DNA of 9,106 bases from a virus. Its lineage: Duplodnaviria > Heunggongvirae > Uroviricota > Caudoviricetes. Positions 506 to 2,846 of this stretch are shown piece after piece. Location: positions 1 to 9,106 of the IMG/VR virus record IMGVR_UViG_2703719349_000001, one strand, 5' to 3'. The notes beneath the pieces were generated by a model, which worked only from the letters and a program-made list of their open reading frames with translations, made no database searches and was not told the origin of the DNA. The stretch's first letter is position 1. Each line of letters begins with the position of its first letter. A program made the translations under genes and the position numbers.

Positions 506-1330
506 GTGAAAAACAATATCAAAGTTTTCGATTTTAAATCAAGCACTGGTGAATTGTTGTCATCAGTTCGTAGTGTGGTCATTGATTCAACACCATGGTT
601 TTTTGCCGTGGATATATGTAACGCGCTGGGGCTGACAAATACTGCTATCTCCCTTCAGTCCATCGATGATGAAGATAAAACCGAATATAAGGATTACTTA
701 GGTTCGGGACGTAAGCCTTTGCTGGTCAATGAATCCGGGCTCTATGCGCTGATTATCAAAAGTCGAAAAAAACAGGCAAGACGTTTTAAACGGTGGATTA
801 CATCGGAGGTAATTCCGTCAATTCGTAAAACGGGGAATTACAGTCTTACCACAATGACATCCCTACCAGATTTTAGCGATCCGGCTGCTGCTGCCCGTGC
901 CTGGGCGGATGAATATGAGGCTAAAAACAGAGCAATTAGTTACGTTCATCGTCAGGCCCAATACATCGAACATCTGGAAAATTTATTCCAGCCTGGCATG
1001 ACACCGGTTCAGTTCTGCAAGCAACTTAATGGAGTAAATGTTCAGCGTATCACAGCATTTCTGGAGGCTCACAACTGGCTTTATGACGAGCGTCCTGAAT
1101 CGCGAAGCCCCGCATGGCGTGTAAAGGCATATGCCCGAGATCTGTATCTGACCGAACGTCACCACTATATCGATTCAGGTTATGAAGAAGGGTTTTATTC
1201 GTATACACCAGTTCTTCTCCAGAAAGGGGCGGTCTGGATTTATCGCCAGTATCTTAGAGGTGCATTACCCATGAAGAGAAACTGGAATGGCGAATTCACC
1301 CACGATAAAGAACTGGCGGGTGCTACATGA
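506..1330 (+). CDS. Phage antirepressor, Bro-N N-terminal domain plus KilAC-like C-terminal domain
   Basis: GTG 506 preceded by GGAGA (495-499). N-terminus has the Bro-N pattern (IKVFDF...PWFFAVDICNALGL...ESGLYALIIKSRKKQARRFKRWITSEVIPSIRKTG); C-terminal half resembles KilAC. The ORF track start at 308 overlaps the upstream gene and was not used. Stop TGA 1328-1330 overlaps the next ATG. Confidence 0.8.
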   Translation: MKNNIKVFDFKSSTGELLSSVRSVVIDSTPWFFAVDICNALGLTNTAISLQSIDDEDKTEYKDYLGSGRKPLLVNESGLYALIIKSRKKQARRFKRWITSEVIPSIRKTGNYSLTTMTSLPDFSDPAAAARAWADEYEAKNRAISYVHRQAQYIEHLENLFQPGMTPVQFCKQLNGVNVQRITAFLEAHNWLYDERPESRSPAWRVKAYARDLYLTERHHYIDSGYEEGFYSYTPVLLQKGAVWIYRQYLRGALPMKRNWNGEFTHDKELAGAT

Positions 1331-2190
1331 TTGTTCTCCAAAATATTGATTCCTCAATTTCGGGACGTTACACTGTTCAGGCACCTTATAAAGCGGGTGC
1401 CGGGCGTGGAAACCCGGAATTCACCAAAGCGCACAACCGCGCTTTTGCGGTTTTTTTGTGTCATGAGCAGCATTACGCCCAAATTATGGTGGGGCGTGCA
1501 GGGCCAACTTCGGTTGGGCCGGGTTCTTTGGTGACCGGTATTTCCACCCCTGTACGTCTCACCACCAATAAGGTCGTGGAAAGCCTTGGTGGTGAGTTAT
1601 TAAAAATCACCAAAGAGGCTGCCATCATGGCTACGATCCCAACCCTCACTCAACCTGAAATTGCCATCGTTGATGGTCAGGCTGTTACTTCATCCCTGGC
1701 TGTTGCCAACTTCTTCTCCAAACGTCATGACGATGTACTGAAAAAGATCCGCATTTTGGATTGTTCTCCAGAGTTTTGTGCCCGCAATTTTGCGGAGACA
1801 TCAATTTTGGTACGCCAGCCCAACGGCGGTACTCGCAAACTTCCTTGCTATCAAATAACCCGCGACGGCTTTGCGTTTCTTGCTATGGGCTTCACTGGTA
1901 AACGTGCAGCCAGGTTCAAAGAGGCATACATCAACGCCTTTAACCTGATGGAGAAGAGTTTATCAGGTGCCGATGCGTCTGATATGTCAGCTGTCGCACG
2001 AAACGCCAGAGGCGTATACCTGCATTTGCGTGAAATCCATCAAATCTGGACAAGCCAGCTTTATCCAATGCTTAAGGCTGTTGAATCTCCGCTGGCCAGC
2101 AAACTGTACGACCGTGTTGGTGATGCTGTTTTTGGTGCTGCACTTGTTGATTCCAGGCTGAATGGTTCTGACAAGGAGGTGCGTCCATGA
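1327..2190 (+). CDS. rha: Rha-family phage regulatory protein with unrecognised ~100-aa N-terminal module; strong alternative internal start at 1627
   Basis: ORF open from ATG 1327 (ATGA overlap with upstream stop, weak SD). C-terminal ~185 aa match the Rha pattern (SLAVANFFSKRHDDVLKKI...EFCARNF...YQITRDGFAFLAMGFTGKRAARFKEAYINAFN). Internal in-frame ATG 1627 has a good SD (AAAGAGG 1612-1618). Which start is used is unresolved. Confidence 0.75.
   Translation: MIVLQNIDSSISGRYTVQAPYKAGAGRGNPEFTKAHNRAFAVFLCHEQHYAQIMVGRAGPTSVGPGSLVTGISTPVRLTTNKVVESLGGELLKITKEAAIMATIPTLTQPEIAIVDGQAVTSSLAVANFFSKRHDDVLKKIRILDCSPEFCARNFAETSILVRQPNGGTRKLPCYQITRDGFAFLAMGFTGKRAARFKEAYINAFNLMEKSLSGADASDMSAVARNARGVYLHLREIHQIWTSQLYPMLKAVESPLASKLYDRVGDAVFGAALVDSRLNGSDKEVRP
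1361..1404 (+). repeat. Ultra-conserved 44-nt block (copy 1) inside the N-terminal module of Rha paralog 1; contains GGCACC/GGTGCC hairpin
   Basis: CGGGACGTTACACTGTTCAGGCACCTTATAAAGCGGGTGCCGGG is 43/44 identical to 2221-2264, while flanking sequence is diverged. Confidence 0.85.
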
Positions 2191-2846
2191 TCCGCTTCCT
2201 GAATATTGATTCTGCCATTCCGGGACGTTACACTGTTCAGGCACCTTATAAAACGGGTGCCGGGATTGGCGTCCTAGAATTGCATACGGCGACAATTGGC
2301 GCGTTAGCGTCTTTTTTGTTGCTACAACTCAGCTATACCCAAATTATGGTGGGCTGGGTGGGGGCACCGAAAGGTGCGCCGGTTTCCGTATGCGCCGGTT
2401 ACGCCAACCCTGCTCAGTTCACCACCAGCGAAATTGGCGTTTCCGGTGGTGGAAGTTATCCATTGCATACGGAGGCTGCCATCATGGCTACAGACCCAAC
2501 TTCCCCATACCTGAAAATCGAAGTCGTCAACGGCAAGGCCGTTATTTTCTCCCTGCATGTTGCCTGCCATTTCAAGCGCATGCACCAGAACATCGTCGAC
2601 AAAATCGAGTATCTGAACTGCTCGCGCGAATTTTTTACCCGCAATTTCATACCGGGTACTTATCACATCTATGGTGACTCCCTGCGTGGTTATTACATCA
2701 CCCTTGATGGCCTGATGATGCTTCAGCTTGGGTTAAGTCTACGCACAATGCGGTACTACGAGAGCTGCATTGAAGCATTCCATGAGGCAGGGAACAGCCT
2801 GAATCTTACCGCTTTCCGCCGTAATCAGTGGGAGGCGCGTCCATGA
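2187..2846 (+). CDS. Divergent Rha-family paralog with the same N-terminal module; alternative internal start at 2484
   Basis: ATG 2187 preceded by AAGGAGG (2173-2179), ATGA overlap with upstream stop. C-terminal part keeps the Rha pattern (FSLHVACHFKRMHQNIVDKI...EFFTRNF...YITLDGLMML). Internal ATG 2484 has SD GGAGG (2471-2475). Ends ...WEARP. Confidence 0.7.
   Translation: MIRFLNIDSAIPGRYTVQAPYKTGAGIGVLELHTATIGALASFLLLQLSYTQIMVGWVGAPKGAPVSVCAGYANPAQFTTSEIGVSGGGSYPLHTEAAIMATDPTSPYLKIEVVNGKAVIFSLHVACHFKRMHQNIVDKIEYLNCSREFFTRNFIPGTYHIYGDSLRGYYITLDGLMMLQLGLSLRTMRYYESCIEAFHEAGNSLNLTAFRRNQWEARP
2221..2264 (+). repeat. Ultra-conserved 44-nt block (copy 2) inside the N-terminal module of Rha paralog 2
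   Basis: 43/44 identical to 1361-1404, at the same offset from the start codon (860-nt periodicity). Confidence 0.85.

Follow-up and report, generated by a model that had tools for sequence, protein, structure and literature searches.

In the satellite P4, as set out by Mageeney et al. (PMC10111431, after Forti et al., 1999), a constitutive promoter lies inside the eta gene, and its transcript is terminated via CI/seqA interactions and processed to the CI RNA. According to the same account, Kil arises from occasional read-through, full-length Eta comes solely from an upstream promoter, coupled to the upstream gene, and translation of Eta prevents termination. In the immI region of phages P1 and P7 (c4 RNA, icd, ant1/ant2), the a' and b' elements of C4 act on sites of the same transcript and block translation of the first gene and so the antirepressor (P7 annotation). 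The name IsrK-C4 immunity system was used by Barquist et al. (PMC3632133), who noted the system in lambdoid prophages. In Gifsy-1, IsrK activates AnrP in trans, AnrP needs translation from the C4 AUG, and a processed RNA of ~80 nucleotides (nt), STnc1160, is made from read-through transcripts (Hershko-Shalev et al.; PMC4825925). Here we analyse a stretch of 9,106 nt (hereafter the window; positions 1 to 9,106 of the IMG/VR caudoviricete record IMGVR_UViG_2703719349_000001), which very probably carries, at 1327–2846, two tandem IsrK-C4 antisense-RNA immunity cassettes of the P4 type, each gating one regulator of the Rha family.

An initial annotation of the window described two adjacent genes that share an 'unrecognised' N-terminal module and four near-identical DNA blocks, and proposed the pair as an undescribed regulatory cassette. 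Both open reading frames (ORFs A and B) exist as described, and sequence comparison of the two copies returned the same blocks: 1342–1352/2202–2212 (11/11 identical), 1361–1404/2221–2264 (43/44), 1478–1494/2338–2354 (16/17) and 1615–1634/2472–2491 (20/20). Identity over blocks 1–3 is 70/72, as compared with 93/173 (54%) in the remaining leader; at that background, exact runs of at least 16 nt are expected ~0.007 times and runs of at least 32 nt ~3e-7 times by chance. The annotation had attributed the blocks to an overlaid RNA or DNA function or to very patchy gene conversion, with the c4 antisense RNA/ant system of P1 as a comparison, and had recommended an Rfam search. That search supports the overlaid function, and not the protein, as what block conservation serves, and places the comparison in the correct family: both isrK and the C4 antisense RNA score above the gathering threshold in both copies, C4 over its full length (Table 1). 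The cassette itself is not undescribed, being the IsrK-C4 immunity system known from P4, P1/P7, N15 and Gifsy-1 (PMC3632133; PMC4825925; PMC10111431). Each copy would comprise, in order, a constitutive promoter, an IsrK/seqA-like RNA with a terminator and the decoys b1/a1, a C4/CI-type RNA with a'/b', and the targets b2/a2, the last of which overlaps the Shine–Dalgarno (SD) sequence of the cargo gene.

Table 1. Coordinates of the elements of cassettes A and B within the window; aa, amino acids.
Feature	Position	Strand	Basis or remark
Long ORF A (Ash-Rha, 287 aa), P4 eta analogue	1327..2190	+	Frame open in relatives; comparison with P4 eta
Promoter A (putative)	1346..1374	+	-35 TTGATT 1346–1351, 17-nt spacer, -10 TACACT 1369–1374; start near 1381; blocks 1 and 2
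IsrK/seqA-like small RNA A	1381..1457	+	Rfam isrK, 67.3 bits (gathering score 50)
IsrK A hairpin 1	1381–1400	+	Fold
IsrK A b1, GTGGAAA	1406–1412	+	Fold; in hairpin loop
IsrK A a1, TCACCAAAG	1421–1429	+	Fold
Intrinsic terminator A	1435–1452 + U run	+	Terminator scan
C4/CI-type antisense RNA A	1482..1569	+	Rfam C4, 83.6 bits (gathering score 45); 5' strand with AUG 1486 = block 3
C4 A a' loop, GUUCUUUGGUGA	1523–1534	+	Complement searches
C4 A b' joiner, AUUUCCAC	1540–1547	+	Complement searches
Predicted b2 hairpin A	1558..1596	+	C4 A 3' strand + downstream 5'-strand copy; b2 GTGGAAA 1576–1582 at tip
Target a2 A, TCACCAAAGA	1607–1616	+	Overlaps SD GAGG 1615–1618
Start ATG of short Rha A	1627–1629	+	3' of a2/SD (1607..1629 = block 4)
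Short Rha A (187 aa), cargo of cassette A	1627..2190	+	In frame inside long ORF A; positional analogue of P4 kil
Long ORF B (Ash + short Rha-like domain, 219 aa)	2187..2846	+	ATGA overlap with ORF A stop; GGAGGT precedes
Promoter B (putative)	2206..2234	+	-35 TTGATT 2206–2211, -10 TACACT 2229–2234, start near 2241; identity with cassette A
IsrK/seqA-like small RNA B	2241..2317	+	Rfam isrK, 54.9 bits (gathering score 50)
IsrK B b1, TTGGCGT	2266–2272	+	Fold, terminator scan
IsrK B a1, GCATACGG	2282–2289	+	Fold, terminator scan
Intrinsic terminator B	2298–2311 + U run	+	Fold, terminator scan
C4/CI-type antisense RNA B	2342..2429	+	Rfam C4, 80.7 bits (gathering score 45)
C4 B a' loop, UUUCCGUAUGCG	2383–2394	+	Complement searches
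C4 B b' joiner, UACGCCAA	2400–2407	+	Complement searches
Predicted b2 hairpin B, counterpart of A	2418–2455		C4 3' strand + downstream 5'-strand copy
Target b2 B, TTGGCGT	2434–2440	+	Complement searches
Target a2 B, GCATACGGA	2465–2473	+	Complement searches; overlaps SD GGAGG 2471–2475
Short Rha-like B (120 aa), cargo of cassette B	2484..2846	+	ATG 2484; 34% identity to Rha A, E = 2e-19

The four blocks coincide with parts of these elements. Block 1 is the putative -35 hexamer; block 2 holds the putative -10 hexamer, the start of the IsrK-like RNA, its hairpin 1 and the base of hairpin 2; block 3 corresponds to the outer stem of C4 on its 5' side, AUG included; and block 4 takes in the SD sequence, the cargo ATG and the first codons of Rha proper. 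The spacer between blocks 2 and 3 consists of the loop of hairpin 2 (b1), the single-stranded a1, the intrinsic terminator and a short linker. It is exactly 73 nt in both copies, as the initial annotation had it, but is not 'unrelated' in sequence: with 37/73 identical positions it has diverged like the rest of the leader. The protein identity of roughly 30% given there is close for the Rha part (34%) and too low for the first 100 codons (47%). The promoter hexamers are near-invariant across relatives, and their placement matches that of the Gifsy-1 isrK promoter (TTGACA-17-TATATT). In the alignment of relatives the opening codons past the regulated ATG (MAT-I/T-P...) are kept whatever the cargo (Rha, Icd-like or other); the first few codons of the gene under its control seem to belong to the cassette.

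Relatives were drawn from IMG/VR as 80 loci fetched via the Rha part alone plus a pattern-fetched set, and gave 121 C4 matches, with 37 distinct C4 sequences and 74 distinct cassettes. Another pattern gave 23 loci; of the first 18 searched, 17 were matched by the model (Burkholderia/Pseudomonas-like C4), and these served as an outgroup. In the pattern search of genome-contig DNA, chance matches in Actinomycetes were filtered out by the covariance model. Across the 37 distinct C4 sequences, 98% of the positions that form the fold are paired and 18 of the 27 pairs have changed on both sides; none of 500 shuffles equalled the real value, and slid controls dropped to 33–49% paired. The C4 sequences also carry features that would suit excision from the leader by RNase P and 3' trimming to a stable RNA of ~77–80 nt, namely an ACCACCA 3' tail and a conserved 5' AUUAUGG.

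Pairing was assessed element by element, through complement searches and short duplexes, since whole-sequence folding of C4 with its flanks ignores intramolecular structure. In each copy a' and b' match their own a1, b1, a2 and b2 over 7–10 nt, with short-duplex energies that range from -9 to -23 kcal/mol where the partners are cognate and from -2 to -10 kcal/mol where they are not. Nowhere else in the window did an a site occur together with a b site; we found just isolated matches of 7–9 nt. The diverged stretches between the blocks are the specificity code, and each C4 pairs with the sites of its own cassette and not with those of the other copy. As the two cassettes use different a/b codes, each C4 should control its own Rha alone. 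A further element, the hairpin with b2 at its tip (Table 1), was predicted in most of 34 distinct relatives (by inspection, not tallied); its basal stem is missing in one locus (L096), and its stems vary by lineage (CACCACC/GGUGGUG, GCCCGGCC/GGCCGGGU and GCCUGCCC/GGGCAGGC). In the models the b2 hairpin and the C4 fold are mutually exclusive, which suggests a processing or folding switch.

Among the described systems, P4 has in its immunity region (PLE promoter, seqA, CI RNA and seqC, with eta and kil nested) the same order of elements as the window (Rfam isrK at 8615–8692, C4 at 8420–8507), with a and b sites on both sides of CI and a2 on the SD sequence. Its start region GGAGGCTGCCATCATGGCTAC is identical to block 4 and lies at a nested 65-codon ORF (MATTLTPSHPEF...), which we take, by our own identification, to be kil. 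P4 eta (199 aa) is open from an ATGA overlap with ORF88 to 8168 and crosses the promoter and both RNA genes, with the short gene nested in its frame. The window has this same nested design, the ORFs at 1327–2190 and 2187–2846 containing internal starts at 1627 and 2484. The differences concern the cargo, which is of the Rha family in the window and a 65-aa Kil/Icd-like peptide in P4; the number of cassettes, two in tandem with different codes in the window; and the setting, the early operon of a lambdoid prophage as against a satellite. P4 also differs in a 78-nt insert between a block-3-like copy and the real 5' end of CI; that copy (CCAGATTATGGTGTGG, at ~8590–8575 of the P4 sequence, our locus L105) stands ~78 nt upstream of the CI 5' end, and looks like the outcome of a duplication of the 5' strand of C4.

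The isrK-orf45(STnc1160)-anrP locus of Gifsy-1 in Salmonella resembles the window in its order, with IsrK and a terminator first, a processed RNA of the C4 kind next and a regulator gene, which is gated, last, and also in that the AUG at the C4 5' end opens an ORF which reaches the cargo start. In Gifsy-1, however, that ORF is a separate frame of 45 codons that stops on the anrP ATG, with nothing open upstream, whereas the frame in the window runs unbroken out of the preceding gene into Rha. AnrP shows no relationship to the Rha proteins of the window, and Gifsy-1 has this locus past Q and outside the early operon. As for P1 and P7, the conserved C4 5' end of P7 reads 'YAQIMVGR', as it does in the window, but the P7 frame closes just past c4, leaving no long ORF, a C1-controlled operator is found upstream, and the cassette is present in a single copy. 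The P1/P7 cargo consists of Icd and a KilAC-domain Ant without a Rha domain (P7 Ant1 matches PF03374 only); no icd-like ORF follows the cassettes of the window. The cargo of cassettes of this type thus varies, with Kil/Icd-like, AnrP, Ant and Rha proteins all represented.

The long frame is nearly free of stop codons among relatives. In the 300 nt upstream of the Rha ATG, 59 distinct enteric cassettes together have two stop codons in the Rha frame and 324 and 206 in the other two frames, and the latter stops fall in 72 and 45 distinct contexts, many within the variable code modules. Relatives differ in leader length by multiples of three, and one lineage carries a -1 deletion in b' together with a -2 deletion just past C4, by which ~10 codons are rewritten and the frame is restored. 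The frames start in ATGA overlaps, at 1327–1330 (stop of the BRO-N gene and start of ORF A) and at 2187–2190 (ORFs A and B), and GGAGGT precedes the ATG of the long ORF in many cassettes, that of B among them. When four same-subfamily cassettes in other genera were checked, three (Aeromonas and two Serratia, with Icd-like cargo) proved open over 351–477 nt (among the matches listed). The idea that the long ORF is a gene-caller artefact was dropped after the stop-codon count. The kept-open frame was likewise dropped as a novelty once the description of P4 eta/kil had been found and verified in the P4 sequence. Very long open frames upstream of some cassettes that stand first in an array resemble translations of non-coding or antisense sequence and were left out of the evidence.

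These data bear on the strongest of the alternatives, according to which the 300 nt would be nothing but an untranslated leader, with a long ORF that arose by accident of sequence and gene calling and the short Rha, made from ATG 1627 or 2484, as the sole product. The cassette promoter does lie downstream of ATG 1327 or 2187, constraint at the amino acid level is absent (see below), and the long frame is closed in P7 and in most Pseudomonas and Burkholderia loci (the latter among the matches listed), and absent from Gifsy-1; it is not a property of the RNA family as a whole. An untranslated leader would have to accommodate, however, a 100-fold depletion of stops in one frame of the 59 cassettes, with ~40 independent module variants that bear other-frame stops (manual count), as well as indels that come in threes or in compensated pairs, an ATG that overlaps the upstream stop and is often preceded by GGAGGT, and open frames in Aeromonas and Serratia. 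Moreover, PMC10111431 reports that transcripts of the upstream promoter give translated eta in P4, and in Gifsy-1 AnrP requires the ORF that begins at the C4 AUG, which is itself translated (PMC4825925). We regard this alternative as improbable, and prefer the reading of the long frames as translated counterparts of eta.

The cassettes might also be inactive recombination relics among genes of the Bro network, regulating nothing. Mosaic and chimeric cassettes do exist among the relatives (in L004:4064 the a' mismatches a2, and L041 has lost the promoter and IsrK), and Rha B is truncated. Both cassettes of the window, however, retain every element with perfectly matched codes, and the two-cassette unit is found at a query coverage of at least 80% in 91 complete Escherichia coli genomes. 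The IMG/VR loci display 22 variants of a' and 14 of b' in 31 combinations, and in nearly all of these a' matches a2 (and a1, sometimes via G·U pairs), as b' does both b1 and b2. The three-way match is also seen in C4 loci of Pseudomonas, Burkholderia, Serratia, Erwinia, Aeromonas and others, for a total of ~35 a'/b' combinations in IMG/VR and many genera (both among the matches listed). Two or three cassettes occur within ~5.5 kb in 21 of 94 loci, and 30 of the 31 pairs of co-resident cassettes have different codes, unlike what would be expected from random decay. It is therefore very unlikely that the cassettes are relics, and functional locks, each with its own code, remain the preferred interpretation.

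At the protein level, the N-terminal module is not 'unrecognised': residues 15–111 of both long ORFs match the Pfam family Phage_ASH (PF10554) with 57.6 and 59.8 bits (gathering score 26), and in a 96.8% identical E. coli prophage gene B carries the label 'ash family protein' from the Prokaryotic Genome Annotation Pipeline (PGAP/RefSeq). The leader, however, varies without codon periodicity, its column entropies at the three codon positions being 0.66, 0.71 and 0.69, as compared with 0.62, 0.48 and 0.98 in the adjacent Rha coding sequence. AlphaFold2 assigned residues 1–112 of the long ORF a predicted local distance difference test score (pLDDT) of 27–40, with just two short helices (residues 5–8 and 96–103), and this segment is predicted to be disordered; the folded protein begins at about residue 112, with the Rha part, although the alignment is deepest over the Ash part. 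A sequence search of the PDB with the Ash segment found no relative, and protein searches with it returned mainly short partial proteins. Taken as a protein domain, Phage_ASH shows neither constraint at the amino acid level nor a fold, given the absence of codon periodicity, the compensated frameshift, pLDDT values below 50 and the lack of a PDB relative. The pattern of variation indicates that selection keeps the translation of the frame and not the peptide. PF10554 thus describes the translation of a promoter and two RNA genes, an open frame without amino acid constraint and not a conventional domain.

In P4, the PF10554 match falls on the old 'cI protein' ORF over the CI RNA (L105, 7888–8584), and P4 epsilon is a member of another family, PF25738. 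PF10554 served as the epsilon profile in a survey of P4-like satellites (PMC8628076); this 'epsilon' marker seems to track the immunity RNA region and not epsilon. The weakest alternative, a genuine folded N-terminal Ash domain of Rha-type regulators with blocks made identical by recent gene conversion between the paralogs, can point to PF10554 matches of 48–60 bits, to the frame kept open and to several papers that treat Ash as a protein domain (PMC8951638; PMC10111431), but is scarcely credible for a segment that varies without codon periodicity, tolerates a frameshift of ~10 residues, is modelled without confidence in spite of its alignment depth, coincides with two covarying RNA families and overlies the CI RNA in P4, and whose blocks are kept in dozens of distinct cassettes from many phages, block 4 even in P4, which also leaves without support the patchy conversion confined to one genome that the initial annotation had considered.

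The cargo of cassette A matches the Pfam family Phage_pRha (PF09669) with about 91 bits (91.3, cut-off 29.9) and TIGR02681 with ~88.5–89.8 bits (cut-off 45.95), and its short coding sequence shows normal codon periodicity. Genes from the Rha/BRO region through replication are all co-oriented, the cassette genes overlap their neighbours via ATGA, and O-like, DnaC-like and DnaB genes follow the cassettes, as in the early operon of a lambdoid prophage.

By analogy with the described systems, we infer the transcript ends, their processing and termination, and the role of Rha, to be as follows. In a lysogen, transcripts from the cassette promoters would lack the upstream ATG and so remain untranslated; most of them would end at the IsrK terminator, and those that read through would be processed to C4. 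C4 would pair with b2/a2 and close the Rha ribosome-binding site, and this block would probably trigger Rho-dependent termination before transcription reaches the O-like, DnaC-like and DnaB genes. The IsrK-like RNA may compete for C4 through b1/a1 and thereby set a threshold. On transcripts that come from the upstream early promoter, ribosomes would enter at the ATGA junction and read across the RNA genes, which would let the transcript run on and give rise to a long isoform, Ash-Rha. The long Ash-Rha ORF would in this respect be the counterpart of P4 eta, its translation keeping upstream-started transcripts from terminating. Given orthogonal codes, the two cassettes would act independently of each other.

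Several points weigh against this account. Rha B falls below the family cut-offs (26.4 against 29.9 for PF09669; 35.3 against 45.95 for TIGR02681), yet is 34% identical to Rha A (E = 2e-19); it consists of the N-terminal domain alone and could be a decaying copy. The cassette promoters were not called by a strict sigma-70 consensus scan, matching 8 of 12 consensus positions by manual count. Rho-dependent termination past the block is assumed from P1 and P4. Finally, in the Gifsy-1 model IsrK activates through alternative mRNA structures and orf45 translation and not as a sponge for C4 (PMC4825925), so that the decoy role proposed here for IsrK is tentative.

What is modestly new is the tandem, orthogonally coded arrangement with Rha cargo in a lambdoid early operon; the system is otherwise described and no new principle is involved. 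The value of the analysis is in the correct reading of a very common locus. In prophages of the Shiga toxin (Stx) type and others, the 'Ash domain' of Rha and Bro-network proteins should be taken for an RNA immunity cassette that is kept translatable; in current annotations, and also in some comparative studies, Ash figures as a protein domain, and one study uses it as a marker of P4 epsilon. Such prophages seem to carry two or three P4-like RNA locks, differing in code, in the interval that separates the immunity region from the replication genes, where they could affect the induction of Stx-type phages and the cross-talk between prophages. More tentatively, and we would consider the following possible rather than probable, recombination at the conserved blocks would shuffle the a and b codes within lambdoid prophage arrays of two or three IsrK-C4 cassettes, and every cassette would be an RNA lock, addressable independently, for a Rha-type regulator of its own; which co-resident or superinfecting phages and satellites silence or release each other might then depend on the code repertoire, as a combinatorial RNA immunity 'barcode' atop the protein repressor.

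Individual arrays differ in their make-up. The third cassette of a three-cassette array (L004, 4064–4151) is a chimera, in which a' (GUUCUAUGUUGA) mismatches the downstream a2 (TCACCAAAGA) and b' still matches b2; such a cassette could be naturally derepressed or half-locked. Two loci (L012, 1337–1787, and L145, 7255–7700) contain two C4 cassettes ~360 nt apart, the first nearly without a cargo gene, and in L012 the second cassette has a different promoter and IsrK type. In L041 (~2300–2446) an upstream Rha gene continues in frame into the cassette, with the fusion point at the terminator; promoter and IsrK are lost, and C4 and the downstream targets are kept. Within the window, the junctions at 2175–2195, 2831–2848 and 3022–3042 share GGAGG(T/C)GCGTCCATGAT, which combines an SD sequence with an overlapping stop and start; the 12-nt core of this junction occurs three times (0.13 expected). 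Two of the copies, at 2175 and 3022, agree in all of 21 nt (GGAGGTGCGTCCATGATCCGC) and flank cassette B and one small gene; this repeat is likely to be a substrate for cassette gain and loss by recombination.

Elsewhere in the window, positions 58–453 hold the 3' part of another Rha-family gene, as judged from its similarity to genes of L041 and L001, and positions 308–1330 encode a BRO-N protein with a weak KilAC match, which makes four Bro-network genes in a row before and with the cassettes. A weak Trp_leader match at 8152–8244 (22 bits, E = 0.84) is really a strong intrinsic terminator (AAACCCGC...GCGGGTTTTTTT) just past the ORF at 7754–8149.

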